A model generated the notes under the pieces. That model was given only the letters and a program-made list of their open reading frames with translations. It had not been told where the DNA came from and ran no database searches. Below are positions 67 through 58,513 of a stretch of 64,000 bases of DNA, one piece after another; the first letter of the stretch is position 1; each line of letters opens with the position of its first letter. This DNA is from Tubiluchus corallicola. Its lineage: Eukaryota; Animalia; Priapulida. The position numbers were made by a program, and so were the translations under genes. The stretch is taken from assembly GCA_030141605.1 (NCBI GenBank), contig JAQGDQ010000027.1, forward strand, positions 849,847 through 913,846, in the 5' to 3' direction.

Positions 67-2933
67 TTAAAAAGGAATGTTTTTCATAGACATACCACAG
101 TTTGTTCGTTCCCGCCACTCTAAAACAAGTCCTTTATTTCTGACAGCACGTGCGTAAGCGGCCATGACGTCGCACGCACTCTGCATACCATTGCTAGCTA
201 CACAGCTGATATACTTGCAAGCGTCCTTGTACGCTGCAGGTGAAATCAGTTCATGAGCAGAAATAAATATCAAACCCTGAAATGTGAGATGAATGATAAA
301 ACTCTATAGTCCAACAAATTTTAGGCTAAAATAACAAATATTCAAAAAATTTTAACCGCCTTTTAGTTTTAAAAACAATTATTCACAAAACTGCAAAAAA
401 AGTTACTACAAATGATGTAAGCAGATTTAGAAATATCTAACAAAACAGCATAAAACTTGTATTTTTCTTTATCAAGACACAAGCCCTTCTTCCTGCGATA
501 TAAAGGATTTAGCATCAAAATTTCAAACTGCACAATAGCATTGAAATGCCCTTGCGAAGAAAAACCAAGTGTTTAATTCGGAATAATGGCATATCGCATT
601 CCTGTATGACTAAACACGAATTATTGTCCAATATGTACTCATTGCAGAAAGTTTGTTTACAAAAGAACAGCAAAAATGTGAACAAAAATTTAGAGTAAGG
701 CACCAGAGTAACTGACAAACAAACAAACTTATTCTTTTCCAATTGCTTAGACGAAGCTTGACTCGTGAGATGATCCAGTTAATAGCAGTTGTCTACAATT
801 GGTATAGCACAATTTTGCTAGTTTTTGTGGCCATCTTTGGTCAAGTGCAGCAAACTTCTTGAAAAACAAGATAGAAAGAAATAAGGCTGCCTCTTTTAAT
901 GTTCATTCAACATGCCCGTTGAAGAGCTGTGGCTTCCCGCTTGACCACAAAAGGATTTCAGAAAAAGGTGACCTGGGTATAGTATTTCATTCAGAATTGC
1001 AGTGTCACTCATATAAACACGTTAACCAATTAATTCAGAATTTTAGAGCTGTCTAGCCTGGTTGAACATCAGCAAATTCTTGATAAACAATCGAGAGGGA
1101 AGGTTTTTTCTAAGCTCCCGCAGGACTGCAATCTCCTCTAATGAGGGGTGTCCCCAAAAAAGTAACCATTATGCTTGATTTCTTAATACGTATATAAAGG
1201 AAATGTTATTGTAAGAAACAGATGTTATATCAAAAAACGTTAAGTTTAAATATATTATTAAGGAAACGAGCGATATTATGCAAGTGAAAAGTACAAATCA
1301 CCTTTTTTAACATATCGCATGCTAATTTGAGTTTCCGCTTAGGTCGACATTTCTGCATTCCTGCAGGTTCACATTCGCCTAGTGATATCTTCTCTCCTTC
1401 CGGAACATACCAACTGTCTGTGTAAATGCTGGAAAACAGAAATAACACCGTAGTCAAAGTGTGAAGTACAAAAGAAGCAGTCTTGCAGTAAGGTCGCCTA
1501 TAAAAAAATCTTATTTCTGTCTTACCTCGTGAGCTTAAAAAATGTCAACAGGTAAGGAGGAAATTTTTTAAAAAAAAGTTTTAAAGCTCTGGGAATGTTT
1601 AAAGCTGAATCGTGGAATATTTAAATTCAGTTGAAATCAAAATTTGTTTATTTCTCACTGATTAGCAGCAATGCTTTAACTTTTTTCAAAGCACATTTTT
1701 CGCCCTTTGGTTTTTACTTTTTTATTTCGCATTACTAAATTATCGTATAATTATTGATTATCGTATAGTCTCTTTTTGTACTTAATGATTCCACTTTATA
1801 TGACTGCACTAGGTAAAGTATAAAAAATAAAATCTCCAGCCGGGTACGCGATCAACAAATTGCTCAGGCAATTAGATGGAAACAGAAGTATTTTTATGAC
1901 AGCCAATGGCAGTTAAGCTTAAAATTATAACTTGATATTTTCAAAACTCATGTATCAGTTTGCAGCCAAGTAATATTTCTAACAATTCTTCATACAATGG
2001 TACACGTCCAGACTTGTCTTTATGAGAAAAAAATAGCTGAAAGATGATATTTGTACGCTGGAGCACAGCATTTCATTTTGAAAGATTACACTTCATAGTA
2101 GTTATGTGCCAGTCTTGCCACAAGCACACCCACCTATATTAAGTAGGTAAGCCCTTGAGTGCTGGATTTTGACTTGCAATGTGCTGAATAAAAATAAGCC
2201 AAAACTGCTTAATGTGAATCCTACTGAGCCAACCACCTCTGCAAATAACTGAACATATTTGCATATTCATACCAGAATTAGGAATCTATCGAAAAATAGA
2301 AAAATAACTTTAATAAATACACGCTTATATGGCAATTAAAGTTAAAATATACCTAGTGCCATCATCTTTTTGAAGTCCATTGAAATTTCCGCACAACCCG
2401 CACATCTTTCCTTTATAATATCCCTCCACAACTGCATCTAAGTAAACTCTTCCGTCCCAGTATAGCTTAACTCCAGGATCCATGTATACCACAAACAAAG
2501 CACCTTCGCGAAATATTCTCAATCCACCCCCGTTGTAAGGAAGTGGCACTGCCCATCCATTTACTAGAACCAGAGAATTCTCCTTTAACAACACAGTGTG
2601 ATTCGAATAAAATATTCGTATGTTCATTTCTGTAAAGGCAGGCACTGCTTGTACCTTCTGTTTCTTCCTTCCCCTCTCTGACCTCCTGAGAACTGCTGAG
2701 TCTTTAAAAAATGATCGAAATATATTCTTCTGCGATCCAAACTCAAGCAAAACTTGAAATCCAGCATAGTTTTCACACGTTTCTGTAAACACTGTAGCAC
2801 ATTTACTGTGTGGCAATGTAGCAAGATGACCATCATAACTTTTGTACTTAAACATTCCAAACGTTGAACAATGACCGCTGTTTGGAATACATACATTGCA
2901 GCATTCACCAGGTATTTTACCTAATGTTTGACC
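67..2933 (-). CDS. C-terminal vWD + C8 domains (exons 28-30)
   Basis: [35 protein letters not shown] (vWD); [30 protein letters not shown] (C8). Confidence 0.85.
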
Positions 2934-5900
2934 CTGAAACAAAATTTTAGAAATAGCACATAAATAGCTGTCAGTTTCTAAAATTGCACATTCAAATCTC
3001 AGATCAGTACTTAGCACACTTGACCAGAAAATGCTTAAAGTAGTCAGTTGCATTTGGTTATAAGTACTTAACTGGTAATGACTGAAAACTTTTTCTAGTA
3101 AAGTCATAATTGCCAAATGTTTGAATACTTCTCATTGTTCTGCATAAGTTTTTTTGCAGATGCCTGCTTACTTGTCCACTGCATTCCTCTCACAGAACAT
3201 GTTGCAAAACCTGGTACTAATAATTAAAAGTAAAACATAGCCAAACGGAGCAGCAACAGCAGCAACAAAAACAACAACAACAACATCAACATCAACTTGT
3301 TGATAATAAATGTTAAACACATTTTTATCAATCAACAGTTGTAGGATTGCTAAATGCTAAAATAACTCGACAAACTGTTTAATTTTTATTTATTACTTGT
3401 GTAATGTGTAGGCTATTGTTTGTGTCATTAGCAATCAAAAAAGTAAAACATTTCAGTACGTTAGGTTTAAAAGTTGCTTGAGCATTTTCTTGTTCACATC
3501 TGACATTTCACAAGTTTATATGCAAAGAACGTAATCAGCCAACTACAGATTAAAAACCTTGCATTTTCAACTGTTTGGGCTGCTAACAGTGCCTGTATCA
3601 AGTCAACTACTGCTCACTGCACTAACTGACAGGTATCTACAGCACACTCTACAGCTGCAGCTTGAATTACTTCACATTGTTTTTATCAGCATATGGTCAG
3701 GTTACCGCTAATTTGTTTAAAATAACTGACTCGTGTTATCATGATATGGGTTTACTGTGGCAGATAAAAGATATCACAATGCATGGATGAATTGTTACAG
3801 GCCTATTGTACACCTTGATCTTACTCCAGTATTTCTAAGATACTTTACCTCCGGGCAACTTAATATAGTTGGACAATCGATTGGTTTACACGCTATCTCC
3901 TCATTCATGCACTGACAGAAGGAGCATTGATTTCCTGGTGGAACAAACTGTTCTCCGTGCTCATATATTAGACCCTGGTAAATGCAGCTACCATCTACAA
4001 AACATAAACTTTGAGAACGTCTCTCAGAAAATACTTATTTGGCAAAACAGAACCAAGTTCATAGCATTTACAGGAGAAAGGTGTATGGAAGGTTAATAAA
4101 TAAGCGAAACAGTGTATTTAATATAGTCATTATAACCAAACATTGGTAAACATGATACACAGGTAGTCATCGACTTACGACCACAATCGGTACCATCGGA
4201 TTGGACGTAAGCTGAATAGGATGCAAGTCGGACCCGTATATTCAAGTGGTGTGCTCCTTACATGGAAGATATTGTGTGTATACTAAGTATGGCAGTGATA
4301 AAGTGAGACATTATCACTTTTATGTAATTAATTAATTAATTTCGTGTCGTAAAATCGAACAGTCGTAAGTTGCATAGATCGTAAAGAGGATGGTCTGTAA
4401 TTATCTTATAGATAACAACCAATGAAATGACAGCAAAGAATTGAAAAACGCCTTTATCCAACATAAACAGATTCAAAGAAGGAAAACTTGTCAACAATTT
4501 CTTCGGTGACAGAATAAGTACGGTATGTCTTGTAATTACAAAGTCCAAATTCAAAACCTACTCAGTGGTAAAATTTTTCACTACCTATTTACATGCTGTG
4601 ATAATAGAAATGGTGCACACAAGCTTATAGAAAATTACTCATTTTTGAGTAACGTAAGTTTCTCACATCCTAATATTCCAAACCTACTGATGCCTGATTA
4701 AACACACATTTTGGACGAGTGTCAACAAGCAATAAGAAATATCCTATAGTAATCAAAATTCAAAAAATGCCAATTTTTGCCTGAATCTTAGTAAAAGTCA
4801 CTCTCAACCTAAATGTGTTTCCTAAAACACTCACAAATTTGATTTTCAATTAACTGACCAAATGCATTCACCTTTGGCAAGCTCTTGTTTAATAACTGAG
4901 AGTTTTTCGAATCTATGTTTGAAATTTTGCATCATTTTATTCTGCCACCATGCTGACTCTAAACAGGTGTAAAATCGCTGCATCACTATATATAAGAGAC
5001 TGTAGTACACAGTTATAAATTAAAATTGGTTTAGTAGTCTTATGACGACAAGTCTGATGCTGCCAAAATTCTGATGAATTGTTGACTTGAGATTTGATAA
5101 TCAAATTTACAATTGGTTCTTGTCATAATTGCTATTTTTCATTTTAAAAATAACTTTTATTAATAATAATTTGTAATAATAAATTAACGAGGAACTTTTG
5201 GAACACCCGTATTACTCAACAGTGAATACATACTCAAGCACTCGGAACAACATTCCTCATGCCAGAGGACCTGCTTCTCCTGAGGACAGTCAAGAGGCGG
5301 ACATTGAACAGTTTCGCATGTCAATTCACCACCCTTAAAAAACAAAGCAAGCACTTCTAGCATTTGTTATAACATGCCCATAACTAAGCAGAATCACCTT
5401 AACAGTTTTCTAGAAATAATGTTGCTAGCCAGTGTTTAGTGCACACCTTTATATAATTATAGCATTTTTATCTTCAATTATTATAGTGAATGATGATACA
5501 AAACTAAGTGCCTAATTGCAACATCACATGCAAAAGAATTCTCAGAATTTATTTTGGATATACATATTTATTTAAGGATACAGAATTGTCAATAAAGCAG
5601 CAAGTTGCTTAACTGAAGATTCTCCTGCATAAGTCTGTTAATAATTATCTGCTTATGTTTAAATCACAGAGAAATCATTAGATCCACAAAAGAGGATGTT
5701 ACATATTTCACTGATGAAGCATAATATATTAAAATTGATGTAAGGTTGAGGTACAGAACCTACTTTAGTCAGAAAAGATAAGCCTATACAATTATACACA
5801 GAGTATATCAGGAAAAAATGCACACTTACCGAACACAGACATGTTGTACAAGCTCCTAGCTGAAACTGTGTACCATCACTGTAAATGAAACCTTCGATTG

Positions 5901-8900
5901 TGCAACTGGAGGCGGCCTCAGCAGAATTAACACAAACAGGGCAGCAAGTACCATTCGGTAGGATACGGTTTTCAGCACTACAACTAAGTGCAGGACAATG
6001 CACTAAACCACAGTGAAGATACCCGACCTGTGAGGAGTGAAAAACACAGTGCTTTAAATTACAAGTACCCGTACAGGCTTTTTAATGCAGTCTGGTGCAA
6101 TGCAAGTTGGAGTATGTGCACACATTGGTGGAGCTACTATTATTGTTGGCTGGTTGTGGGAAACATAAACCTAGTTGTTACCAAGGATAATTCCCCAAGT
6201 TAAAAAGCTGGGTTGGCAGCAGATATCATAGGGTCTATACACACAGAATGCCAAGACAGAACAATAAAAAGATAGAAAAAAATTCTAGCAATAGGAAAAA
6301 AATCTGGCAATCACTCATCTATATACTGACCAAGCCCATCATTGCCAAACAGATGCCAAACAGTCATTCTCTTAACTGCAAATTAAAGAAAAAAATGCTA
6401 AAACAAGAATAATAAAATTAAACCTTGCATGTGCACTGTGTGCAGTCATCGTCTGCATGACGAAACGTGGCTTCTTCAAGGTACGTGATGTCCTCATGGC
6501 TACAACCTTTACACGATGCACAACAAGTTTGATTTCCACCATCTAGAGGATCTCTACATTCTGAAGGACAAGACACTGACTTGCACTGTATGGACGTGTC
6601 CTACAAATGGAAACAAATTAAAATAACTTATTATACTACAGTAGAGTCTATCAATTCAACAGCATGACTGGATAAACCAATAAATTAAATTTGATGCCCA
6701 CATCTTTAACATTGCAATAATTACTACAGTCAGCTTGGTACTAGTCGGCTATAGCAGCGATACCCTTAGTTAATTTTTGTAAGCCGTAAATAAAACATGC
6801 TTGCAAATAGAGTCGAAGTTGAACAACATTTCCTAGGAAACTACTTACTTTTGAGAGTTCAATAAACTGGGGGTTCCTACTGCTGAGGTTTAAGCAATCA
6901 ATCCAGTAAGCAAACAAATACATGAATTAATTACATAACTCATTAATCTAATTTGTTGCTTAGGAACAAAAATATGCCAAAAAACAAAGAAAAACAGGAA
7001 CTTCATATCATATTATTATATTTGAAATGTTTCAATAATGGAACATACTTATTCTTCAAAATGTTCAACTCCACACAGATATACACAAATCACGAATTTA
7101 ATCAGACAAAATTATCAACACACCCAAGTGGGGAAGAGCTTTATTCCATATTAAAATAATTTATAATGACGTCATAAAAGTGTACTTGTAAATGCAGTGA
7201 TTAGTAATCACTGATTACTCAAAACACACAAAACTGAAAAAAAGCAAGTACATTGCAAACACAGAGCGTGCAATCATCCTCCATTGTCCAAATATCTCCA
7301 TGTTCATAATGAACTCCATCAAACTCGCACTTTTGACATTGGGGGCAGCACTGTCCATCTACTGTTTCTGTGACTGAACATGTGACTGCAGGACAGGGCA
7401 TCATGTCACAAAGTACTGAGCCTTGCTGAAAATTGACAAATAAATTTAAAGTAAAAAAAAGTTCAAGAAATTTCAACACATAATCACGAACAGCATTCTA
7501 ACAGGTGGCACAAAAAGAGGTGCTGAACTTTTAATCACGATATTATAAGAAAATGACTGAATTACATGAAAATTACCACAATGATGTAACAGTCGTTTAT
7601 GTACAAACAACAAAAATTTTAGGTCATTCCCTTAGATTTTTCCAAAGATACAGGAGTTTTTTAAACAAGTCAAAAAAATAAATGCCGGAAAACTTTGTAT
7701 CAAGAATACTAAAATTTACAGTAAGTGTTCTGTGAGTCTACCATTTTTACTGCAAACTGACAAAGGCATTTCTTCCAACAGCTGACACAGTTTCTCACTT
7801 GTTTAAGGGGTATTTAGTTCCAACACTCAACAATTTTTGCCTTTAATTCCTTTACATCAAACTGCTCTGTGCAGCCACTGTACATTTTCTCTTTATGGGA
7901 ATTCCAGATAGCATTTAGTCCAAAGGATTCACTCCCATTTCTTCCTTGGTAATAAATCTCTATCAATGCTTCATCTTTTGTGGCGAACACCATGCAAAGG
8001 AACTAGTTGATTGTCAATTTCTTCATTATTTTGCTGCCATTCTACTGAGCTTTTTATACGGCTGTTTTCAATTATGATTACCTAACAATGTACCGGCATT
8101 TAAATTTTTAACATGCAAAAGTTTTTAGGTCATAACTTAAATATCCTGCTGCAAAATTTCAGCTTTGCAGGGCACTTGCTTCTAATATTATTGTAGTCGA
8201 AACCTCGTCACATTTTTTCTGGACCATCTGGTATAAAAAACATGACATCACTGTCTTTCATAAACTTATGAAATAAGAAGAAATATTTGTACACCACTCT
8301 GAACACAGAAAGAAGATGGGTATGATAACAAGTGATAACATCTTTGTTGAATTGTGCACTTAGTTAAATTTTGACAAGAACGATGGATTTGTAATGATAA
8401 TAGCTGTAGCAATGTATTTTGCGACAATAACTTATGAAGACAAAAGTAAACGATGGACATAAATTCTCTAAATAAATACAAAGTAAGTCCATTATTTACT
8501 GAATGAATGAAAGTTAACACATTTATTACACGTCTTCACCGAATGCATTGCAAACTAATCGAAAGTTCACTTTCCTAAAACAGAAACAAAACATTCGTTC
8601 ATTCCTTCATTCATTCATTCACACAACCTCTCTTACCTGACATGTGCAGATATGGCAGGGATCTGCGTCATTTGGAATAAACGTCGCTCCTTCTTTATGT
8701 ACCTTCCCATTGAATTCACAGACAGAACAATCCATACAGCACTGACCAGAAACAGCTAGGCCATGGGTACAAACTGCACCACAGGAACGTGCAGTGCAAT
8801 TTACCGTGCTGTTCTGAAATTAAAAAACGAATGAAACTTACAAATTACAGATGTCTGCGCACTACTAATAAGTATGAAACTCCTCAGCCAATTTTGCTAT

Positions 8901-11900
8901 TTTCAAAGTAAACATATCCATCATGCACAAGATATAAATAATAAAACATTATTACAATGTCAGGTTTACCATTAAATATTTTTTCCTTTAAGAAATATGT
9001 GATCGATCAGCAATTTGGTCAACCGAAAAATTGACTATACAATTTACATGTATAGTATATTGGGGTAATGTCGGCCATATTTAGGTTTTTTCAATGATAT
9101 GCATTAATGCTTTATATAATATATATAGATTATATATTCTAAAAAATGCCAGTCTAGGTCACGTGACCTAATACGTGTACAAAAATATAAAAACCAGATG
9201 GCCGAGTTTAATAAACTATACACTAAATGAGAAAAAAATAATTAGGCGAATACGATTTGCATCATAAGGCATCCACCTGTTAATGAAGTAAGTCACTGCC
9301 ACACCATTATTAATAATTCATATTTCTATGTTTGACTTACAATACGCAAAGTATGATTGCCAAACTATTGGTAAACATAATAAGACGTGTAACATAATAA
9401 ACATGTTTGCAAATGTTTCGTGCAGTTTATAATGTTGCGCATAGTTTTAAGTTTGATACGATTTTTTTCTGTTTGATGACAAGTCTTTATTAAAGATATT
9501 TAACTAATAATTTAAAATCAAAATCACATAGAATTGTTACTATGTTAATCTACAGCAGCTCTATACTATACATTTACCTGACAAGTGCACTCTTGACATT
9601 CACTATCAGCTAATGAGAAGTTTTCACCATCCTTGTATATCTCAGCACCTATTACACAATCACCAGGACATGCAACTGATTTGCACCTTACCTTAGTCAC
9701 CTGTAAAAACATACAAACTTTTACCAACTCTGTCAGCTACATAAACTTTTAATAAGTTCAGTGAACATTCTTACATTATTATACTAAATTCCAAACAGGA
9801 GATATTTATGCAGAAACTAATATCATTAAATCTTGTACGGAAGAAAAGTACCCGGGCCACATTTTAACAACAGATAAAACAGACAATATGGATATTGGCC
9901 GCCAGCATCGTTTGTTCTACATTCAATCAAACAAATTAATTCGATATTTTTCTAACTGCAGTACAGTTAATTTTGTTCAAAGCATATTGCTTTAACTTTT
10001 ATTGTGCCGCATTATGGAATAACTATTACGACTACAGCTTAAAGAATTTAAAAGTTGCTTATAATAAAGGGATCAGAATTTTGTTTAATCTACTTTATGA
10101 CTGCTCGATTAGACAAATGTGTATAGAACTAAATTTACCATATTTTGATTTTATTACTAAAAGATCTATTTATTCACTAAAAATTAGAGCTACTGACACC
10201 TACAATGAATTGATAAATAATATATTTAACAGTGACTGTTTATTTATATCTAGGTTGTATAAGCATTGGAATAAAAGCCTATATACTGTAGCCCAATAAA
10301 GCAAGGTTGTAAATATCGTAAATACTTAATTAACTGCATTTAATTGTGAGAAACTACTAACTGATAATTGTATATTGATTTATATGTATAATATTTGTTT
10401 GTTAACTATAATTTGTATTGTAATATGGACTTTGTTCTGAAATAAAAATATTCAATCAATCAATCAATCAATCATTAAATTATTATTCATAAATTAAAAC
10501 AGGATGATCCAAAAGAACAGTGCACTAAGCTTACCAATATACTACAAATAATATTATTTTAACATCATTATGGTAACATGAGGAACAAGTCAAGGTCATT
10601 TGATCATACTTGTCATCTTTTTAGGGCATTGTTTCTTTTGGAATACCCCATAATATCAGAATTAAAAAGCAAAGAAAATAAAGTAAAATTTGCCACACCT
10701 AACCTGATAATCAACAAAATTTAAAATACCTAAACCTAAGCTTAATTAAAGTAGGTTTGTAAATGATTTATCTGTAAGTATTTTACTAAACTCAAAACAT
10801 CAAAAAATGAATACTTTTTATTTAAGATACAATTATATAAGAAAAAATTAATTAATTATTATTTATTTAAAAAGACGACTATAAATATAGTACTGTTTTG
10901 AATTACAGAATAAGTGTGAGGCCAGAAACAAACCAGAAAAAACACACTAATAGAAACATAACATTGATTAAGCACAAAAGTGCAATTCCTTTGCTTATCT
11001 AATTTATTTAGATTTTTGCTAAATATATTGTGAACTACTAACATAAACTGCAAGTACTTTAAATAAAGCAAGAATCCACTTACTAAACATTTGCATTCTT
11101 GGCAGAGATCCTGAGTTGAATCCTGCAAGTTAATACTTTCACCATGTTCAATAACCCTGTCATTATATATACACTGCATTCCTAACAAAAAAACAATTTC
11201 ATTAAAAATGGCCAAAAAAGGCAGGCCAAACCATTCTTTTTCTAGAGAAAAATTATACAAATATAAATGTATCAGATAACAAGCACCATTAACTATGCCA
11301 GTATGCATTACATGCAACACATTATGCAAGTAATAAATAAAACATATGCAGTTTAACGAAATACGCATTGAATTGTTGGTTTAAAAAACACTAATTTTAT
11401 TGTACACAATATACCTGTTATAGTCTATAAATAATATGAGTATGCGTAAAATCGTTTTACATAACTCTAAAGGCACATTCAGATTGGAGTATTTTCTCAC
11501 AAAGAAATTTCGAATGAATTCACACTAGAGAGTAAAATCTGCTACAAGTTGCTTTCCGACAGCAAGTATAAACAAATGTCGCAGGAGATCTATCTCTGCA
11601 GCAGGTAGAAAAAGATACGAGTTCTCAAGATGAAAAGAGTTTGTCTTCATTTGCATAAAAAGTAACAAGGCCTGCTGACAGTAAATTTGTAGAGCAGTTC
11701 ACACTAGCAAGTTTGCTATCAGACAGAAGTCTCCAGACAAGAACCTCTCCAGTGTGAACACAGCTTTAATGATAACAGTCATTCGAGTTCTTACCACACA
11801 AGACATGGCTGTTGTTTCACTTAGTAATTCCACAAATCCTTAAAAGTGAAATGTAAAACTCCTACAAATAAGAGTTAGGAGTGATACATTAAAAGCAATT

Positions 11901-23900: not shown

Positions 23901-26900
23901 ATACAATTTCACATATGTCAAGTGATTTAATAATCAATGACTGATACGTAACGATATTCTCAGTTATTTATTTGTGACCTTCCCCAAATGAATAAATTTA
24001 TAATAAATTTTTAAATACCTTTTAACACAGGTCACAAGGCTAATAGACAAACTGCAAAAAATCTTAGCCTTTGAAACCCTTGAGAATATAAGCTTAGCAC
24101 TTGATTTTTTTTCTGCAGATTAAAAGCATTTTATCAAACTTTCAATTTTAGAGAAATGAATTGCTTAGTAGGTATAATACCATATGAAATGTTTATCTTC
24201 CTTTAATAATTTAAAATTTAAATCGTAATATAGATTTTGCGATATTATAATTTAAACAAGGTAAATAATATAGCTTTTCAGGTTTTGGTTCAAAGAAAAG
24301 TACCTTAAACACGAACACATACCTATGCACGTGTATCCGTCCCGACCAAGCCACATTCCCTCTGGACAAATGCACTGGTATCCGCCCATTAGATTCACAC
24401 ATTTGTGACTGCAAGGACGAAACAACCGACATTCATCATAATCCAACTGACAGTGCGTACCCAGATAACCTGGCAAGCAGTAACATGTACCATTCACACA
24501 TTCGCCACCATTCATGCACTCGGGTTCGCATTTGTTCACGTAGCAGGATTTCTTGTCGTCAGAGAGCGTGTAACCTGGTTCACAGAAGCACTCGTATCCA
24601 CCAAATGTGTTTTTACAAAGCTGTTCACAGCCATGTGTTTTACTGAGACACTCATTCTTATCTGCAATGGCAAATTTTAAACTACATGTAGTTACTCCAT
24701 AAAATAAATAAGATGCTGACATTTGTGTCAATTTATTACTATGTCATGAATTTTCTGCAGTCTAGTAAATTTGGTACTTCTTTATCTTATTATAGCTTTC
24801 TGCACATTTGCTAAATTAAATGTGAAGCACGTTTTGTAAATCTTTAATATTAGGAAAGTATCACGTTTTGAAAAAATTACAATTAAGAAAACAAATGGTT
24901 TAAATTTGTTAATAATCATAAATAATTATAAATGTAATAATTAATACATTTCAATGAAGCACAATAATAGCCATACCAATTTCACATGCATTCCCAGTTA
25001 AACCATCAGGACAAGCACATATCCCATGGTAACATGTGCCACCATTTTGGCACTCTGGTTCACAATACTTGAGCTCAATTTCCACCTTGTGACCAGGTAT
25101 TACAAATATTGCTGAAAAAATATCATAAATACACAACTGATTCTGTTTCACAGGCTATGTTTCACTGCAATCATTAAAAAATGTGGCTAAAACACTAAAA
25201 AATCCCTAAAAAAGATTAATCGAGGCATTGAAGTACAAGAACAAGATCATAATCAAATAACAGTTTTAAAATAGCCCATCACTACACACTAAAATATAGC
25301 TGAAAGAAATGATACCATTACAAGATTTTCCATCGTCTGCTAAAACAAAGCCAGGTAAACAGGAGCAGAAATAACTTCCTTCAGTATTAACACAGTCTTG
25401 CATACAGCCACCCTTATTGTAGCTTGCACATTCATTCTCATCTGAAACACCAAACAGAACAGCCCATGCAAAACGATTAATTACTGAATTTGCAACATTT
25501 TATGATACTCAGTCGTTAAGTAACTATATGTAGTTCGTAATAGGCTTCCTACACGAGAAAATGCAAATTTAACTAGCTGATTTGGTACATTGCAAAGGTG
25601 CCTGGAACCCTACACTATGTTCAACCTGTTTTACATGTGGGTTTGGCAAACTGAAGCTAAAATCCAGGGTTGACAATTAATGTTGAATAGCTGTAGCGAG
25701 ATCAAAATATAGAGAACACTTGGGTGCAAGAATACCACCCAGAAACAAATTTCTTGTCAGTCACTCATCTATTTACTAACCCCACCCAGCACTGCCTAAC
25801 TATAGAACCAAAGATATACTGCAATCACTCAGCTATTCCTCTTTGTCCAAAGTAAATATCACTTAGTGTTTCTAGTGTGTGCACAAACTAAACACATTAT
25901 ACAAATTTAGCATAAAAGCAGACAGCACATTCAGCAATACTTCAGTTTTAAATTTGAATAAGCTTGCATTCAGTTAAAATTGCAGCAGCGCCAGGTGGCA
26001 CATGTGGGTGGCATCACATTTCCCCTACAGTACAACTAAAGCCTCTATAATATCAATTTCGTTATATAGATCTCATTTTAACCTAGATTTAGAAAGTAAA
26101 TACACAGTGAAATGGCAGACAACATTATTATAGTTTAGAAATTTCTAATAAAGAGAATTAAAACATACCAACACAGGCACCACTTCGCAATACATAGCCT
26201 GGATCACATTTGCACAGATAGCTTCCCACCAGATTAACGCATTTGCTCATACAAATCCCGGGATACAGCTGACATTCATTCACATCTGCCAAGCACATTG
26301 AACAAATTTACAACTGAAAATATGGTTTCGAGAAACAACGTCCTCTGTAGCCGAAGCCTCAAGCCTCTCTCACTCTTTCCATTTTCAGCAACATGTGCAA
26401 TAAATTTATTATAATGCAACTGCAATGCTTTCTCGCTGTATTTATTTAATTTATCTACTGTAAAAATAAACGAGAATCAAACAAACAGCTATGACATCAG
26501 GAAGCAAAAACAACAATATATTAACAGAAATGTTTTGCAAATTCATGATCGAGCCATAGGCCTGGGTTCATTAGCCTTTCTGGTTTCACAATATCACCCA
26601 ATGTTAAAGGTCAAATTATCTTCGTTAAAGTCAAAAAACACAAATTACTATACGAGTATTCATGTGCCAAAATTGGACTATTTAACCACTTTTCATTCTT
26701 TTAAAACTAAATTTCATTCAAAAATAATACAGGATCCTTTAATACTGATATGATATAAATACTTTGTCATAAAAAAAATCTATTTAGACTATGCAGTGAT
26801 TTTTTCCCAGAGTGCAAGTGGTATACTACAGTATCAGACTCAGAGTTACTAGAATCAATCGCCTATTTGACTCAAAGACGTCTGGTATGGGCCGCTCCTA

Positions 26901-29900
26901 TTTAAATGTATAACAAAACTGTCCACAATTTACTCAAACAACTCCAGCAAAATTGACTAAATACTTTTGCCTCACATCCATAAAATAAGTGGTGATCAAA
27001 GAGCTTTTGCACTTTTATGTCATCTTTACTTCGCTTTTGTGCACTATAATATGGGTAGAAACTAGAAGCAATCATTTGAAGTACAATTTTGTAAGCAGGT
27101 TTGTTTATCACATGCTTATATGTTAGCGTAGCGTCTTTGCTTGAATGTGCCACCGGTTCCTCTACTGTAATTAACCTCATTGCGAAACAATTTACGGTAG
27201 CTAAACTTTTAAATGCATGCCTAGGTGTTTCATTTTGAAGAGTTTGATGCTTTTCACAAAATGTTTAATCACTGTTGCTGTTATGCCACCGATTCATTTA
27301 CAGTAATCTGCCAGTATTCTTCGTGAGATTATAAACATAAAAATAATATAGCAATTATGAGAGCTTAGCATTAATTTTGAAAAATAAAGCACAAGTGTAA
27401 TTATTTGCATTAAATAGCTCTTACAGCCTTTTCAGTGCACACTAAGCTGGAGAGTGACGACTCATAGTTCTATACCAGTAATACTAACACCCTTTGGCTA
27501 ATAGATTCAGTTGGTTAATTGGGTTAAAACACTTCCATCCAGAAGCGAGTCTATTAAGCAGAGCCTACTGTATTTAAAATTTATTCATTCATTAGTTCAC
27601 AATATTAAGATTTTCCAAGGAACATCACAAATTTGTATCTTTTACGAAAAGAAAGTTTAAATTAGTCAGAAATTCAACAGCTGAATTCACCTCTACATGA
27701 ACGTCCATCTTCTTCAAGCTTGAATCCTTGATGGCACATGCAACGATAACTACCATAAGTGTTCACACAAAGGTGTTGACACGGCAGCCGTGTAGCTCCC
27801 AGAGTATCTTCACACTCATTCTCATCTGTTGAATAATGTAAAAACTTTATTCACTTTGTAGGTATCATATTTGGTGGATTCCTAGTCAAGTTATTTGTTT
27901 TCCTAATTGCAATTAATTAAATGCAATGAAAACAAATTGCTGAAAGAAAATAAATACACTAATGATTAAAGTAAGTATACACAAGAAGGGTTATATATAA
28001 TTAGCAGACATGCATAAAATGTAATACCTGTCAAATCAATAAGTATTTCCTAAATAAAAGTTAGTATACTGTAGATAATCAGTAACTAAAGTAGTATTTT
28101 AAGTTTAATTAATAAGAAATCTACCAGATATAATTAGCAGACACAGGTAAAACATGAAACGTAAAAAAATCAACAAGTACAGTTTAGTTAGAAATTACTA
28201 CATGTTGAAGGTAAAATAAATCTACATGTAATTCATACCAACACAGGATATGCCATTTTTATGCAGAAGAAAACCAGGATCGCATGTGCAAATATAACTT
28301 CCAGGTATGTTGTGACACCTGTGATGGCAAGGTGAAACAACTCCGCTGCACTCGTCAATGTCTGAATATAAAAATAAACATTATATACATTAGCTATCCA
28401 AGAATGCATACAAAAACCACTGCTGGAATGACGAAAAATTCTATAACAACAAATTAATCTCTATTTAGAAGTACATATATGTAGGGATTAAGTGTTGTGT
28501 AATTTTTCAAAGGGAATACACAAAAATGAAGTGAATTAACACATTAGTTTGGTTCAGTTAAGAAAATGTTTCCATCTTATAGAGGTAGTGTAGCATGCTC
28601 CTAGTCCTACCTCAAATAAAACAACTTTTCTGAAGATCCAAATAGTTTTTCTTAATTATCTACTTAATATGGATGGATGTGGTAGAACTGGAACCTACTT
28701 TTTACCAAAGGTAATCCCTTAAACTGGGACACTAAACCAGCTGAGATGTCTTAAACATGTTTGGATAAGAACCAGCCACAATGTTGGTAAACTTTGGTAA
28801 CTAAGCACATGCTCTAACCACTCGACTCAGAATCAGCCTCGGTGCTGCTTAACTTTGGTAGTTAAGTACATACTGTAACCACTCGGCTATGAACCAGCCT
28901 CAATGTTGCTCAACTTTGGTAACTAAGTACATACTGTAACCACATGTCTAAGAGCAAGCCACAAAATTGCTTAACTTTGGAAACTAAGCACATACAGTAA
29001 CCACACAGCTATTAACCAGTCTCAGTGCTGTTTAACTTTGGCACCTAAGGACATACTATAACCACTCAGCTATATCCTCAGTCAGAAAATTAGTTTTTTG
29101 AGCTGTTTATGGGCTCCAATTTTTTAACAAGAACTGAGTGAGTTCCAAGAAGACCCAGTGCCACAATTCTAGACCTCCAACAAAGCTAGAATGTATTTAT
29201 ATAACTACATACACATTGTTATGACTTCCTATGCATTTATCCACATATAGGCCTATCTATCTACTGCATGCATAGCAAAATTAATAACTGTTATATCTAA
29301 ATTTTAACAAACTCATTTACCCTTCAAGCTGAAAGATACAAACAAATTAGTGCAGAGAATGACATCAACTCATTGCAAAAAATTTTTCCCATATCTTCTA
29401 AAAAATAAAGTTAATGAAAAAGAACTTCCTATAGAAAATGATTAGACTTAAACTTACCATAACAGACTTCATCTCGTTTATTATACCAGTACCCTCCTGG
29501 ACAGTGGTCATTTGGTGCTTCTTTGCCGGTGTGACTATATCCTAGAACATCTACCTGAGTGGAATTATCAAACTTTTCCTTCAATTCTGCTATTTTAGCT
29601 GTTATTTTTCTCGTCTTTCCTTGCGTACAAGAAGAGCTCTTGCTGCCATCGGTGCATAAGCAAAGATCTGGAGCAATGCATCGGCCACCTCTGCAGTCTT
29701 GCTTACAAATAGCTACATCATTAAGACAAAACAGATTACAAACAAGAAAAAACACAAATGAATTGCCACAAACAAAGAAGAGGAAAAGTATTCACAACAC
29801 TTGAAAAAGTAATCTTGAACCCCAATTAATCTAGACAGAAAATAATCTATTCGCTCTGTACTTTAGAAATGCTGATCTGAAAACAGTCACACAGGAAGAA

Positions 29901-30172
29901 AAACCACATGCAGGTACTGGACTTTCTGTGACTGCCAGCCGCAGGTGCCACAAGACGTTCTACACAGCCAGGATCCAGATATATTTTGTAAAATGCAAAT
30001 ACGATATGTATACTACCTATGCCTTCAGCTACGCTGAAATAATCCCGCATTTTTCATGTCAAGCTGGCAACATAAATAGTTACTCTTCTGGTAAATTCGG
30101 CAAAAACAAAAGCTAATTTAATTTAGGATCTGACTTAAGTTCCAAAAATTTACAGGTTGCTTTATATATATT

Positions 30173-30205
<33 letters not shown>

Positions 30206-33200
30206 GCAACGTCGTGTCAATAACAAATGTGAAAAGCCTTTTCCTGCAACTTATTACACGAAAATTAAGTGGGCCTGGGCTACGTGCCAGTAATCCTACA
30301 AGATATCGTCATCATCACCTGCGAGTTGCTGTTCCGTGTAAGTTCTCCGGTTGCAGCTTAATTAACGTTTTATCATTTGATGAATTGCACGAAAATAAAA
30401 CTTACGTGTAGAACACAAGGCTGAATCATCACCAACAGAGTGAGTCCAGCCAGGGCAGCAATAGAAGGATGAACGGAAACTGCATACATGAGGACCCCTG
30501 CAAAGTAAAAAGCATTTCGTAAATACTAGTGTAATGATGTATAAATGATGATGGTGATAATACCTCAGTCACATGCAATAACAACAACAAAAACAATCTT
30601 CTGAAACAACCAATCAGAATCGCGAATTACAACTAATAATTGAATGTTAGATTATGACAAAGAACAATGACCTGAAATAGACTGACCCGGGTAATAAAGC
30701 CTTGGAAGACAATTCGGATCAACCAAAAGGTCTTAACTTAGCATGGCCCATAATTTGTATTTTTTTAATTTTATTACATCTATGATCATGTTAGATAGTG
30801 TGGTACAGAACTTTCGTTTTCATTCACTTCCCTATAAGAAATGCAGCATTTCATGGTGTCTAATTACAGTCACACAATCATTATTATATTAGTCATAAAT
30901 ACTAAAAAATGTTGTAAAGTAAATAATAGACTGAACAATATTGCTCCTTCAGCTACTGAAACAGCATTTACTGGTGTTTCAACTATACCATCTACTTTTG
31001 CAGCATTTTTGCTAACAAAGTTTTCAACGTAGTTACATGTATGTAAATTTGTCAACTGTATGAAAAAATAAATTGTTGTTAATACCAAAAACACGTATGT
31101 TTACTCTTGTCGCTTTGTGGATGCTATTTTTTGATTATGGTTACATCATCAATTACCATCGTCATTACCATCAATATCATCATTAGTTTCATCCTCATGG
31201 TTGTAATCACCATTACCACCCCGATTGATCATCAATACCATCACCATTTTCACCGTCATCTCCTTGCTTTTTCTTCTTGATCTTGTTTTTCTTGCTTTTT
31301 TGTTCAAATTCTTCTGCTGTTCTTACACTTCTTCTTTTTGTTTGCCTGTCGTTTTTCTCTGTTGTTGTTTTATGTTTCTTATTTATATTCTCTTTTTCTT
31401 GTTCTTCTTGCTGCTGTCATTCTGCTTGTTCTTGTTCCTCTTCCATATTTGTAGTCCACATCATCATTATTGCCATCACCATCTTATTCTTTTTGTTCTT
31501 GTTCCTTTTCCATATTTGTAATCCACATCATCATTATTACCATCACCATCTTGTTTTTTTGTTCTTGTACTTTGTGCTTCTCTCTGTTCTTGTACTGCTT
31601 GCCTTGTTCCTCTTGTTGTTCTTCTCCTTACTTATCTACTTACCTTTTCTTCCTGCTGTTATTGTTGTTCGTGGTGGCAGCAATACATGGCCACCACAAT
31701 GGTGCTGCAGTACAGAGTGATACAGTTCACCGCAAGACAGTACAAGGTGTGCATCCAGTAATCATTGTCGAGTTGCAGCTCACTCTACTACTAAACAGCT
31801 GTGTGACATCATCTAGTGCATGTGAACACAGAAGTACACAAGTCTTACTTTTTGCTGCTTCCCAATATTTTTTACCTGGAAATTCCTAGACGCAAAATAT
31901 TGCTCATAATTACAAATATTATTATTTTTTACTTAAGCCTATTATGGTTTGTGTTGTGGTCTGATGGGCATGCTATTATCAAGTGACGTGCCATGTACAT
32001 CGTATGGCGTGAGTTGTCGTTGAAGGTTTAGAAGCAGAATTGGTGTCTGGCCAGTAATTTACTATTGATTCGCGATTATAATTCCAAGCTTCATACAAAA
32101 AAGGTTATAAGGCACACATAGCAAGTCTAGTTAATTTGTTGCCCACATTTTGGCGGAAATGCGAATGCGCGAATATTCAATTTTCACAGTTCACACTCAA
32201 TCCGCGGATTTTATGGATGCGGATATTTACAGTTACGGATTTTGCGGTTATGGATAAACGAGAATGTGATAATCGCCCACCTCTGTTCTAGATATTAAGA
32301 AATTAACTATTCAACCAATCCTGAAGTTTACTATTAGTGCACTTCCCACGCCAACACATATGTAATCGACGTAACTAATCGATGTGCTATGCACACGGCA
32401 CTGACAGCGTACATTTCAAATCAAGTGATCCTCATCAAATTAGTATAATAATTGAATGCTGAACGTCGATGCCAAATTGCCAATATTTTGAAAAAAAACG
32501 TCAAGAACTGTTCCATATGTTCGGGTAACTATGTGGTCATGGTTGTGCTCAGCATAAGTGAACAATATCTAGCCTGTTCACTGTGGTCAGCCAAGACAAC
32601 TGCTTTGGTAGTTTAATCAGTCGTTACTCCTCTAGATAATTTGTCCCGTTCAGCAAACTTATATTTCCGTCTACACATACCTAAGGCACTAATCTTTATC
32701 CGAAATCCCTGGTTCAAATCCATGTGCAACCTTTTTTCACATTTCTGTCCGTTTGGAAAAGTTTAGTTTTAAACATTCAATAAATTCTAGTTCTTTCAAC
32801 TACAACTAGCGAGATTCCTTAAAATTAAAATTAACGATCGTTATCAATTATATTAATAAAATAACCACAATTGTTGTTATCCGTTGGTGAGCTATATTAC
32901 TAATTAAAGACTTACCACGATCAAAGCGAGAGACCAGGTGGTTATAGTGGTTAATGTCACTAAAATTGCAATCCGAGGATTTCTAGTTCAAATTTAAATC
33001 CAAAACAAACCCAACTTTGTCATTGTTCTTTCGTTTTAGTCAAATTTGATTTTAGGAATTCAACTGTTGAGTATTCATCTCAACAATAAAATAAAAAATC
33101 TTGAAATTAAGATCAATTAAATTACCCTTACGACTTTTACTGGCTGTAATATACAATCCAAGTGAATTGGAACTTATAAACAATTAAATTTGAATAAGCT

Positions 33201-34253
33201 AAGAATCGAAGCCATTCAGCTAGCCAGACCAACCTCACTGCCTTATAATTATGTGCACTAAAGCTATTTGCAGCAACAAAAATAAAATTTGAAGGCGGAG
33301 GAAGCGGCGGCAACTGTTGCCGTTACTACTGTTGCAGACGTTGTTCTTGCTGCTATTGCTGTTGTTATCAGAGTTTGAGTTAGGAAATCAGATGCTCCGT
33401 CACTTATTTAATCAATGCATCTACAGCCATTAAATAAAAATTAACGATAGTTAACATAATTAATGTTGTGCCAGGTATTCTATATCAATCGGTAAGTTAG
33501 TCAGTTGGTAGGCCATACAGTTGGTACAGCCACTCAGTCAGTATACGTCATTGACCTGAGCAAACTGTGATAAATCAGGCAATTAAAAATGAGCGAGACA
33601 GCCAGTTGGCTGTATATTTGTCAATTATTAGCTAAATATAGCCAGTTAGCCAGAAGCTTTGAAGTTTCATTCCATTAAGGAATTATTTTTCAGTCTATTA
33701 GTTAGTCAGGAACTAAGTCGGCCAGTTTGTCGTTCATTCATGATTCAACTAGTGCTTACAGTTAGGTAAATAGTACAAATAAGCCATGTAGCCACTTCAA
33801 TTCTCAGCGAACGTCCGTTTTAGACAGTAAATTGGTCAGTCAGCACGATGCAATTTGTGGAAAGGTTATTGGATAGACCAAGACCAAAACATAAGAAAAC
33901 ACGCTCTTGAACTCGAAATCCCTCTAAAAAGAAAAACTCACATATTCTATTATGTTCATTAATACAGAAATCCAAGTTGAAACAATAAGAGAACAAACAA
34001 AAACAACCGACCATTTGTAAGCTAAGCTGACGTGCTTCAAGTAACATGTTGGTTTTCAATCAATAAAAACTGCCAAATTAATTAAGATAAATTCCAAACG
34101 TCATTAAATCATTCAATGCGCGAAAAGGAAAACTCACCGTAGCGCTGGTTGGTCGATTTCGCTAGCTTCTACAAAACGTTGCACATAAACGTAAACAGTA
34201 AACGCAAGAACATAGCCAGCAAATATATGAAACTCTTCCTGGCACTTCATCAT
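67..34253 (-). CDS. Secreted multidomain VWCE/Kielin/Crossveinless-2-like protein (EGF x11, FN3, vWC x10, Ig, Fz-CRD, vWD, C8), ~2264 aa, 30 exons
   Basis: Exons in transcription order: 34138-34253, 30406-30497, 29458-29712, 28239-28361, 27691-27825, 26169-26285, 25316-25441, 24977-25111, 24323-24661, 23691-23786, 21016-21171, 20726-20843, 19024-20123, 17245-17327, 16470-17063, 15918-16094, 14836-14926, 13769-14059, 11909-12448, 11084-11181, 9578-9700, 8637-8813, 7252-7425, 6424-6600, 5830-6027, 5234-5333, 3849-3994, 2353-2933, 1302-1428, 67-276. All have GT-AG boundaries with compatible phases; total 6795 nt ending TAA. Exon 1 [30 protein letters not shown] is signal-peptide-like. GPHVC..CCPGW..PIC..CIAPDLC matches the VWCE/fibrillin-type N-terminus. 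Confidence 0.85.
4160..4397. mobile_element. Tigger/pogo-like MITE (family A, copy 1)
   Basis: Starts CAGGTAGTCATCGACTTACGAC; homologous to 12900-13186 in the opposite orientation (shared CTATGCAACTTACRACTGTTC). Confidence 0.6.
7502..8230 (-). mobile_element. Internally deleted Tc1/mariner element
   Basis: The minus strand encodes a decayed transposase C-terminus ([35 protein letters not shown]). Imperfect TIRs CAGGTGGCACAAAAA / CAGATGGTCCAGAAAAA. Confidence 0.6.
9790..10473 (+). mobile_element. 5'-truncated non-LTR retrotransposon 3' end (RTE-X-like)
   Basis: [31 protein letters not shown] / LFKAYC..Y..LW..LKVAYN is a frameshifted RT C-terminal region, followed by AATAAA and a (TCAA)n tail at ~10452-10473. 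The 5' boundary is approximate. Confidence 0.75.
11471..11765. mobile_element. PIF/Harbinger-like MITE
   Basis: Imperfect TIRs AGGCACATTCAGATTGGAG / CTCCAGTGTGAACACAGCT flanked by TAA/TTA; internal TTCACACTAG repeats. Confidence 0.4.
11909..12448 (-). CDS. Frizzled-like cysteine-rich domain (ROR/MuSK-type CRD) exon
   Basis: [56 protein letters not shown] has 10 Cys in ROR-CRD spacing; 540 nt, phase 1-1. Confidence 0.9.
12900..13186. mobile_element. Tigger/pogo-like MITE (family A, copy 2)
   Basis: TIRs CAGGTAGTCGTCGAC..GTCGATAACTACCTG followed by TA. Confidence 0.65.
13769..14059 (-). CDS. Ig I-set domain exon, ROR-type
   Basis: [55 protein letters not shown]; 291 nt, phase 1-1. Confidence 0.9.
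14100..14400. mobile_element. PIF/Harbinger-like MITE
   Basis: Imperfect TIRs GGCGCGTTCTGACTA / TAGTCTGTATGTGCC; resembles 11471-11765. Confidence 0.35.
17981..18913. mobile_element. Tigger/pogo-like non-autonomous DNA transposon (family B, copy 1)
   Basis: TIRs CAGTAGGCGC(CGC)TTAATAGACTCAC..GTGAGTCTATTAAGCGCCTACTG with subterminal repeats; homologous to 26829-27570. Confidence 0.8.
19024..20843 (-). CDS. FN3 domain and ~300 aa Ser/Thr/acidic linker (exons 12-13)
   Basis: [52 protein letters not shown] fits the FN3 consensus. The 1100-nt exon ends at GCTG|gtaagt. Confidence 0.8.
21016..30497 (-). CDS. N-terminal Cys-rich module and EGF array (exons 2-11) of the mosaic gene
   Basis: Exons 3-11 are phase 1-1. 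Seven calcium-binding EGFs (DIDEC, DENEC x2, DVNEC x2, DKNEC, DYDEC, each with C-x-N-x-x-G-x-Y/F-x-C) plus plain EGFs (CQNGGTC, CMNGGEC, CFGGMC). Confidence 0.9.
21463..21692. mobile_element. piggyBac-like MITE
   Basis: TTAA|CCCTTTTACTACG..CGTAGTGAAAGGG|TTAA. A second decayed end (GTAGTGAAAGG) lies just left of it. Confidence 0.8.
22173..23577. mobile_element. Two inverted Kolobok-like MITEs sharing one TTAA (large imperfect palindrome)
   Basis: Arms 22173-22764 and 22769-23577 are reverse-complement homologs; termini AGGAAGACAGG / AGGAAAACTGG; central TTAA at 22765-22768. Confidence 0.7.
23314..23487 (+). mobile_element. Penelope-like/retrozyme insertion with degenerate hammerhead ribozyme
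   Basis: Flanked by a 15-bp direct repeat AAAGGCCTTGGCATT (23299-23313, 23488-23502); contains CTGATGA-CAGCAGACTGCTGTC-GAAAC (23400-23426). Confidence 0.6.
26829..27570. mobile_element. Tigger/pogo-like non-autonomous DNA transposon (family B, copy 2)
   Basis: TA|CAGTA..GAGTCTATTAAGCAGAGCCTACTG|TA; internal sequence homologous to 17981-18913. Confidence 0.75.
28770..29073. repeat. Tandem repeat, 61-bp unit x5
   Basis: Unit approximately AACCAGCCTCAATGTTGCTTAACTTTGGTAACTAAGTACATACTGTAACCACTCGGCTATG. Confidence 0.9.
31140..31670. repeat. Decayed mixed trinucleotide low-complexity region with a ~66-bp internal duplication
   Basis: (CAT/CAC)n and (TTG/TTC)n tracts; TTCCATATTTGTARTCCACATCATCATTATTRCCATCACCATCTT occurs twice. 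Confidence 0.7.
32152..32285 (-). mobile_element. hAT-like terminal fragment
   Basis: Minus strand begins CAGAGGTGGGCGATTAT with several CGGAT/ATCCG subterminal motifs; partner end not found. Confidence 0.35.
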
Positions 34254-36668: not shown

Positions 36669-44339
<7,671 letters not shown>

Positions 44340-50496: not shown

Positions 50497-50818
50497 ATCA
50501 ATTCCTGAGTGTGACTCATTGGTTGGTGAGGAAAGTTTTCAGTGATCCTTTGTATAACCTCATCGCTGGTTTTCCGCTTACACTTTAACTAATCGCCAGA
50601 AGAATAGGTAAACGATCTGCATATTCGCTTAGTTTTAAAAAATAACACTATTTTAAGTACATTAACTTAGTATGTAAAAGTAAAACACGTGTTCGATTTT
50701 ATAGTGTGGATACAATCAGCATCTTACGGTTAAGTATCACTGAGTGTATAATGGTAAACGAAACAAAATCATTTTTTATTTTTCGTCTTTTTAGACTTGT
50801 CTTCGTTCAACTGATAAG

Positions 50819-55672
<4,854 letters not shown>

Positions 55673-57523: not shown

Positions 57524-58513
57524 TGTGTTCAGCAAACGTCAGCTATAGTTTATATTTACACCTAAGAAGGATACTTATTAAACGAGAAACATTTCACTTT
57601 GCTCATGTTAATGCACAACCTCAAACATTAATAAACTGAGATATACCAGACACACTTATAATAGTAAACATTGTCCAACTCACACCTAGAAGTCCACGAG
57701 ATAAAATTTTAGTTGACGTGCAAACAAAATTTCAATACAGACACTCGGACTATCAAAGTTAAAGTGAAGCAATGATAATCTCAAAATTTCTACTTGCATA
57801 GCCACTAGTATTGTATAACTATGCAATTTACTTTGGATACTCAGAACAAGCTCACCTAAAAGCTACGTGAAAGAATGTTGCCAATGATGCACAGCACCTG
57901 CTGCTGGCTACATACACATATTTATTAAATTACCAGTAGACCAAACTTGATAAACAGCTCAATGTTGTATGTATGTAGTTGCCTTTGAGGACCTTGAACC
58001 TGTAGTTGCCTAAATACTCTTATCACTGTCCTTCTAAGTACTTCCTTATTCCTCTGTAATCTTACTCCTTCTATTTTTCTAATAATTTAACTAAACATTA
58101 CTTGCTAAAAATCCCCTTTCTTCATTTTTTTAATTTGCCTGCACATTATTTTACTGCCTAGAACTCTAGATGATATACCCAAAGTATAAAACAGCATTCA
58201 TATGTAAATGTTTCACAAGAGTGCAAAAAATAAACAGTAATTTTTAAGAATCAAGTTCAACCTTTATTATATTGGATCAAAGTTACAGCAAATTTGCAAC
58301 AAAAAAATCCTAAGCCGCTTTCAAGATTACCACTTTACTTTTGCTTTTTACCATGAGTTGGGCGCTGTCTGTCGCACTAACCCACGTGCCGCATTTGCAC
58401 TACACTACGCATGCGAGTCGTTGAATTTTGAGCCATTTGATCTTGAGTAGCCATCAGTGACTGCGACATCAAATTACACTCTTTCACTTCTTCATATCTG
58501 TTTTTCATGCAAC

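Follow-up and report, generated by a model that had tools for sequence, protein, structure and literature searches.

A predicted secreted VWCE/kielin-like protein of the priapulid Tubiluchus corallicola with a ROR-type Ig and cysteine-rich domain cassette

Results

Gene model and transcript evidence

We analyzed a window of 64,000 nucleotides from the priapulid Tubiluchus corallicola (assembly GCA_030141605.1, contig JAQGDQ010000027.1, positions 849,847 to 913,846 of the forward strand), in which a minus-strand gene spans positions 96..34253 as far as the window reaches. An earlier reading of the same letters (the sequence-only reading) had described there a secreted mosaic protein that joins the vWC and vWD modules of BMP-binding proteins to the Ig and Frizzled-like cysteine-rich domain (CRD) of the ROR Wnt receptors, and had proposed that it couples the two signals outside the cell. 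The gene is real, and the observation stands. Its 30 coding exons are joined at splice sites picked from the sequence; in an independent rebuild all 29 introns are GT-AG with matching phases, and the 6,766 coding bases give 2,255 codons in one stop-free frame.

Exon 1 (34138..34253) carries the start codon and a predicted signal peptide (mean hydropathy 1.49, residues 10-28), for which hydropathy is the sole basis; this exon has neither RNA nor homology cover and lies outside both stretches compared with the transcript data. No transmembrane helix was found, since no 19-residue window has a mean hydropathy >1.6, and no kringle or kinase exon was found in the window, where ROR queries match exons 18-19 only. 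The absence of transmembrane, kringle, and kinase parts noted earlier therefore holds, and the product is predicted to be secreted. On the same two grounds (matches confined to exons 18-19, no transmembrane-like segment) we rejected the idea that the locus is a ROR gene.

The other end of the gene required revision. It had been placed at a stop at position 67; directly past the C8 domain, however, there is a phase-1 splice donor (90..95, after base 96) in the 99th percentile of GT sites, and at the same point five out of five relatives inspected run on for 67-96 residues into a TIL-type tail. The stop is therefore probably intron read-through, and the true 3' end would lie beyond the start of the window, in a TIL exon predicted from the relatives. 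A tblastn search with 11 relatives found no further exon of the gene within the window.

Transcript evidence comes from run X1, a single run under the same species label with short contigs and a guessed RNA type, matched at 80-85% likeness. It has joints at six of the 29 predicted introns (6/7, 13/14, 14/15, 23/24, 25/26, and 28/29), some of them with an offset of 1 or 2 bases at places of sequence difference between run and window. Run X1 leaves exon 30 and most 5' exons uncovered, which is no evidence either way because the contigs are short. Over the conserved exons of the gene the run differs from the window by ~5-10%, which points to a loosely applied label, a cryptic species, or a population that has diverged.

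Domain architecture

Pfam was run on the open reading frames of the exons, and EGF and vWC modules were counted by their cysteine pattern; this gives 11 EGF-like modules, including the N-terminal one, and three vWC domains before and seven after the Ig and CRD (all coordinates here are on the minus strand). Exons 2-3 (29458..30497; 30497-30406 and 29712-29458) encode a fibrillin/VWCE-type N-terminal module (Fibrillin_U_N, PF18193, on exon 2) and the first EGF-like module. Ten more EGF modules, seven of them of the calcium-binding type (cbEGF) and all in phase 1-1, follow in exons 4-11 (21016..28361; 28361-28239, 27825-27691, 26285-26169, 25441-25316, 25111-24977, 24661-24323, 23786-23691, and 21171-21016). 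Pfam EGF families match exons 3-9 and 11; exon 10 is EGF-like by sequence, without a Pfam match. Exons 12-13 (19024..20843; 20843-20726 and 20123-19024) contain a probable FN3 domain, split over the two exons, and then a linker of ~310 residues with no family match.

The first three vWC domains and a Thr/Glu-rich spacer, which lies between vWC1 and vWC2, occupy exons 14-17 (14836..17327; 17327-17245, 17063-16470, 16094-15918, and 14926-14836). They are followed by the I-set Ig of exon 18 (13769..14059) and by exon 19 (11909..12448), which encodes a linker and a Frizzled-like CRD with ten cysteines. The row of vWC domains resumes in exons 20-27 (3849..11181; 11181-11084, 9700-9578, 8813-8637, 7425-7252, 6600-6424, 6027-5830, 5333-5234, and 3994-3849), from vWC4, which is truncated, to vWC10. 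Exon 28 (2353..2933) holds the end of vWC10 and a vWD domain with a basic insertion, and exons 29-30 (96..1428; 1428-1302 and 276-96) a vWD-C8 linker and C8.

Matches to VWC apart, the Pfam E-values are 4e-19 for I-set on exon 18, 1e-13 for Fz on exon 19, 3e-20 for VWD on exon 28, and 4e-11 for C8 on exon 30. Of the domain chain read earlier, EGF, vWC, Ig, Fz-CRD, vWD, and C8 are thus found by Pfam; the signal peptide is a matter of hydropathy, and the FN3 domain is weak (Pfam fn3 E 0.07 on its second half). Atlas fn3 clusters at 0.89 are a lead only, and a PDB search with half of the domain gave no match.

The backbone belongs with long VWCE/kielin-like proteins

A profile search with the vWC exons returned 86 proteins, most of them Kielins. 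EGF, vWC, and vWD are listed together in only three of these (a shark protein twice and a sea urchin protein); the shark pair are two isoforms of one gene named kielin/chordin-like or VWCE-like, and the urchin cluster holds more urchin members. These long VWCE/kielin-like models (Heptranchias perlo XP_067849824-826, Strongylocentrotus purpuratus XP_030834167, and Lytechinus pictus XP_063959886) share with the priapulid gene the EGF row, the vWC row, a single vWD, the C8-type region, and the TIL-type tail, the last being predicted in the query. The shark model also shares the fibrillin-type N-terminal module and likewise lacks the self-cleavage motif GDPH, whereas the urchin proteins keep GDPH and have unrelated Igs among their EGFs. 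None of them has a CRD, an FN3, or a ROR-like Ig, and all are uncharacterised gene models.

Segment-by-segment comparison with 99 vWC/vWD proteins gave a similar picture. The N-terminal module is matched by the two shark isoforms only (43% identity over 61 residues, E 2e-10), the EGF row and vWC1-3 have their best matches in shark and urchin proteins, and vWC4-10 in urchin proteins. The FN3, linker, Ig, and CRD segments are matched by none of the 99.

We also compared the order of the repeats. One after another, vWC1-10 of the query align with consecutive urchin repeats 4-13 (z 4.2 and 4.1; 0 and 1 of 500 shuffles), vWC1, vWC2, and vWC3 corresponding to repeats 4, 5, and 6 and vWC4-10 to repeats 7-13. 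In the same test, 65 kielin-type proteins reach a z of 1.9 at most, and KCP, which has ~18 or more vWC domains against ten in the query, is not colinear (z 0.9 and -1.5); shark and urchin repeats compared with each other give z 4.8. Because vWC3 and vWC5, which stand on either side of the Ig-CRD, match urchin repeats 6 and 8, the query is, on the evidence of repeat order, one ancestral vWC array with the Ig-CRD inserted. Two adjacent genes were rejected, chiefly because the vWC order of the urchin protein continues unbroken past the insert.

A 35-row tree of vWD-C8 sequences puts the query, like the shark and urchin proteins, neither in the Kielin/KCP clade (support 85/99) nor in the BMPER/CV2 clade (97/91); the query stands on the vWC-vWD side and not with the mucins, though weakly (79/86). 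The GDPH motif, present in 59 out of 62 relatives picked by their vWD motif, is absent from the query and from the shark protein. A word-index search with the vWD exon among proteins of 315-2000 residues scored 13 of 412 candidates, all of them FCGBP-, zonadhesin-, or otogelin-like.

Two orthologies were considered and set aside. A Kielin orthologue was rejected because of the EGF/FN3 N-terminus, the ten repeats, the lack of colinearity, and the position outside the 85/99 clade, the last subject to a long-branch caveat; a CV2 orthologue because of ten vWC domains instead of five, the missing GDPH, and the position outside the BMPER/CV2 clade. Crossveinless-2/BMPER and Kielin/KCP do share with the query a vWC row that leads into vWD, C8, and in part TIL, together with basic patches that possibly bind heparan sulphate; unlike it, they have no EGF, Ig, or CRD.

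By sequence, then, the query is best read as a member of the long VWCE/kielin-like family, with the N-terminal module and EGF row, the colinear vWC row, and the vWD and C8 all found. The possible link between VWCE and the Kielins proposed in the sequence-only reading is not special to this gene, since EGF, vWC, vWD, and a TIL-type tail occur together in the shark and urchin models as well. The backbone is thus already present in public gene models, where it is seemingly uncharacterised; it is the ROR cassette that was not found there.

In the shark models (P0303, P0279, and P0281, XP_067849824-826), a VWCE-like protein runs on into vWD and TIL. Mammalian VWCE (URG11) has the N-terminal module, EGF, and vWC, an architecture that it shares with the query and with the shark relative named VWCE-like at source, and is not known to have vWD or TIL. 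The comparison suggests a C-terminal loss in the mammalian protein.

The Ig and CRD are of the ROR type

The CRD has as its closest solved structure by sequence the CRD of human ROR2 (E 3e-16), followed by Nrk and MuSK. Its cysteine spacing is 7-41-8-6-12-3-7-21, compared with 7-40-8-6-12-3-7-21 in RORs and 7-36-8-6-9-3-6-16 in the Frizzled type, so that 21 residues precede the ninth cysteine, as in RORs, instead of 16. An AlphaFold model of the domain (predicted local distance difference test [pLDDT] score, 84) superposes on ROR2 with Z 18.5 (root-mean-square deviation 2.2, 136 aligned), on MuSK and Nrk with Z 14-15, and on Frizzleds with Z at most 10.5. ROR spacing and the closer ROR2 fold thus speak against a CRD of the sFRP/Frizzled type, the character of the groove being judged from spacing and fold.

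An ungapped alignment of the Ig with the first Ig of the ROR-like kinase P0020 gives 40% identity, and pre-CRD Igs of RORs supply its two top matches among 87 Ig domains compared, in a set where 64 of the 87 are RORs. In ROR1/ROR2, Drosophila Nrk, and MuSK (PDB 9FSE, 7ME4, 3HKL, and 9LGG) an Ig likewise stands directly before a ten-cysteine CRD. The query differs from these receptors in having no kringle, transmembrane helix, or kinase and in embedding the pair in a predicted secreted protein. The earlier assignment of both domains to the ROR type is therefore borne out by sequence, spacing, fold, and Ig identity.

Both exons are phase 1-1 cassette exons, the class that can be shuffled without damage to the frame. 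Their acceptors are in the 99th percentile and their donors in the 95th and 99th, respectively. Splicing from exon 17 to exon 20 is also in frame; given these phases, the frame would hold whether or not an isoform includes the cassette.

Contigs of run X1 lie inside both exons: 166 bases with 15 differences in the Ig exon and 153 bases with 10 differences in the CRD exon, at a depth close to that of the gene's spliced contigs. Among the differences listed, the synonymous ones are seven out of seven for the CRD (seven of the contig's 10 being listed) and six out of nine for the Ig (nine of 15 listed), 10 out of 11 for the vWD, 10 out of 12 for one vWC exon, and three out of 13 for the linker. 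Because the listed differences are mostly synonymous compared with the linker, the cassette looks coding and constrained.

Distribution and origin of the cassette

The CRD exon is present in at least one other, distant source by sequence likeness: P0001, a fragment found only in Logan, is 47% identical to it, and the similarity ends at the same place. In the CRD tree (which leaves out CRD matches of <100 residues and, P0001 excepted, proteins of <280 residues) this fragment is the sister of the query CRD, with a Shimodaira-Hasegawa-like approximate likelihood ratio test (SH-aLRT) support of 99, and the tree names no donor ROR lineage. Separate comparison of the domains, as the sequence-only reading had advised, thus gives an Ig that best matches RORs, a CRD paired with P0001 and no donor lineage, and a vWD outside the two known clades.

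An exhaustive CRD search was made in a library of 1.84 billion proteins, reduced to representatives of 50% clusters. Among the best 150 of its 238 matches, none matches the gene model outside alignments anchored on the Ig/CRD, and none of the 29 of these scanned with Pfam has vWC, vWD, or EGF. From the other side, the domain lists of the 86 vWC relatives contain no Fz. A word-index search with the CRD exon (proteins of 315-2000 residues) scored none of 113 candidates; such searches end at 2,000 residues and would miss full-length orthologues. Atlas searches gave generic Fz and FN3 clusters only. No protein with the full combination was therefore found among these CRD and vWC relatives or the 99 proteins compared, in keeping with the earlier remark that no such protein was known. 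In the open-access literature (titles and abstracts; subscription journals largely uncovered) we found no description of a ROR cassette in an EGF-vWC-vWD protein, and the available portions of PMC6071037, PMC13121700, PMC7643001, and PMC6747125 do not mention a ROR cassette in such a backbone. Within the limits of these searches, the combination of cassette and backbone appears from sequence to be lineage-restricted, and a ROR receptor gene is the likely source of the cassette, through exon shuffling.

Invertebrates commonly have mosaic extracellular proteins in which particular lineages have gained domains. The crinoid proteins P0002 (XP_071952165) and P0003 (XP_033111178) have 2,000-3,000 residues with FN3, many Igs, and three tandem ROR-type CRDs, and no kinase; they are a second reuse of the ROR CRD outside the receptor. 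They lack vWC, vWD, and EGF, and the CRD tree gives no supported sister relation between their CRDs and that of the query. P0004 (XP_071851463, sea cucumber) and P0005 (XP_031565408, sea anemone) are ROR-like kinases with two CRDs each.

Other genes and repeats in the window

Introns 13, 10, and 5 of the gene contain interspersed repeats at ~17980-18900, 22200-23070, and 26830-27540, which attract many partial run X1 contigs, one of them with an opposite-strand joint at 22578/23072; these repeats look like small transposable elements. A trinucleotide-rich, low-complexity stretch lies in intron 1 at ~31100-31650, and long (CT)n/(CTGTCT)n runs of low complexity at ~40130-40800.

The rest of the window contains exons of Pex19 (~41660-42050, plus strand), COA3 (57311-57538, minus strand), and SelO (63371-63790, plus strand), as well as a multi-exon Hsp70 gene at ~50800-55400 on the plus strand. 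At 45411-47423 on the minus strand, arginyl-tRNA synthetase is encoded in one uninterrupted frame of 670 codons, among nearby genes with many introns; it is possibly a retrocopy or an intron-less gene.

Discussion

By analogy with better-known proteins, we tentatively read the product as a tethered BMP/Chordin modulator with an accessory, low-affinity docking module, a reading to which we would give slightly less than an even chance. In outline, a long VWCE/kielin-like gene would have gained an Ig-plus-CRD cassette, and its secreted product would likely hold BMP or Chordin-type partners near cell surfaces, as Crossveinless-2 and Kielin do. It could be anchored to the matrix through the cbEGF row and to heparan sulphate through basic patches that lie within or close to vWC1 and vWD; binding of BMP or Chordin may fall to one or a few of the vWC domains. 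The protein would not cleave itself and would so stay whole and tethered.

The model for this proposal is CV2. BMPER/CV2 has five vWC domains, a vWD with the GDPH self-cleavage motif, and TIL, and its C-terminal part binds the heparan sulphate that keeps it at cell surfaces (PMC8377005); vWC1 serves it for BMP binding and vWC1-4 for Chordin binding (PMC2944808). As for the cassette, it would likely contribute no more than a docking site of low affinity, either for Wnt itself or for a Wnt receptor. In the CRD of ROR2 an additional helix closes off the lipid groove, and WNT5A is bound less strongly than by the CRDs of Frizzleds (PMC11219042); Nrk buries a non-exchangeable fatty acid, and MuSK is without a cavity (bioRxiv 2021.04.29.442059). 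Because ROR-type CRDs are thus without a Wnt lipid groove, a high-affinity Wnt trap is unlikely by this analogy; a soluble ROR-type CRD could still give a low-affinity, specificity-giving Wnt site. The cassette could have a part in BMP binding as well, because in MuSK the Ig3 that precedes the CRD is needed for high-affinity BMP binding (PMC10763067).

Several observations weigh against this reading of the gene and its product. Only one of the five CV2 vWC domains binds BMP, the vWC of CCN3 does not, and BMP binding cannot be read from vWC sequence (PMC10326224). Compared directly, the vWC repeats of the query and the shark protein agree weakly (z 1.8, 19 of 500 shuffles); in the vWD-C8 tree the query, shark, and urchin proteins form no supported common group, the query branch is very long (3.67), and by plain BLAST the query vWD-C8 is closest to fish Kielins. 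General I-set proteins also score well against the Ig exon, and both the skew of the Ig comparison set and the partial coverage of the synonymy counts belong here. Finally, no run X1 contig crosses junctions 17/18, 18/19, or 19/20, so that the splicing of exons 17-18-19-20 into one mRNA, and with it the place of the cassette in the main transcript, is only inferred.

Unlikely, but the strongest of the alternatives, is a structural scaffold of matrix, cuticle, or mucus, in which the cbEGF row, the O-glycosylatable linkers, and the vWD-C8-TIL part would build or decorate a polymer and the Ig-CRD would be a spacer or adhesion module without signalling. The fibrillin-type N-terminus with seven cbEGF modules, the kinship of the vWD with FCGBP, mucin, and vWF domains, and the ~500 residues of fast-evolving linker and 27 N-glycosylation sequons of the predicted protein are all consistent with it. 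Skeletal and adhesive proteome papers (PMC5460417, PMC9382459, and PMC6474901) reportedly mention kielin-like proteins, which we count in its favor. Yet the vWD-C8 unit is single, as in CV2 and Kielin, and not in the tandem D assemblies of mucins; the vWD-C8 tree, weakly as it does so, separates the query from the mucins; and the CRD looks conserved.

The proposal that prompted the analysis, a true BMP-Wnt integrator whose vWC domains bind BMP and whose Ig-CRD traps or presents Wnt5-type ligands and so couples the gradients extracellularly, seems to us rather improbable. The query CRD has the fold of the RORs and their cysteine spacing, the one that goes with the groove-blocking helix, and the CRDs of ROR2, Nrk, and MuSK cannot take the Wnt acyl chain (PMC11219042; bioRxiv 2021.04.29.442059). 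A ROR CRD acts beside Frizzled at the membrane and packs on the kringle, which is missing here, and a Wnt role is unproven for most non-Frizzled CRD proteins (PMC6747125). On the BMP side, binding of BMP is not a general property of vWC domains (PMC10326224), and the GDPH of CV2 and Kielin is absent.

A further idea, which we regard as similarly doubtful, is that alternative inclusion of the ROR-derived Ig-CRD would switch the protein between a plain BMP/Chordin shuttle and a coupler of BMP to Wnt5/ROR-Frizzled, in a third bilaterian branch beside Crossveinless-2 and Kielin of which mammalian VWCE would be a truncated remnant.

Least probable, and quite unlikely in our view, is that the Ig and CRD exons lie outside the main mRNA as skipped exons, a nested ROR-derived fragment, or a second downstream transcript: in-frame 17-to-20 splicing, the unbridged junctions, and an in-frame ATG with a short hydrophobic run at 12485, 37 bases upstream of exon 19, would fit, but the flanking repeats are consecutive in the urchin orthologue, contrary to two genes, the splice sites are strong, no other ROR exon lies in the window, and that ATG overlaps the polypyrimidine tract in AT-rich introns where hydrophobic ATG frames are common (10 found).

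The tethered modulator thus remains our preferred, if tentative, account, and the gene itself would be a clean and datable instance in which exons of a receptor tyrosine kinase were shuffled into a secreted protein of the BMP-modulator type, at a place that is fixed by the orthologous repeats on its two sides. Were the product to bind BMP and Wnt alike, one chain would link the two main signals of axis patterning, a rare arrangement, and would offer a natural test of how a ROR CRD acts without Frizzled, kringle, or membrane. More broadly, the gene points to a conserved, uncharacterised EGF-vWC-vWD-TIL branch beside Crossveinless-2 and Kielin, represented in a shark, in sea urchins, and in this animal; such a branch would supply an ancestry for VWCE, a gene that is poorly understood.

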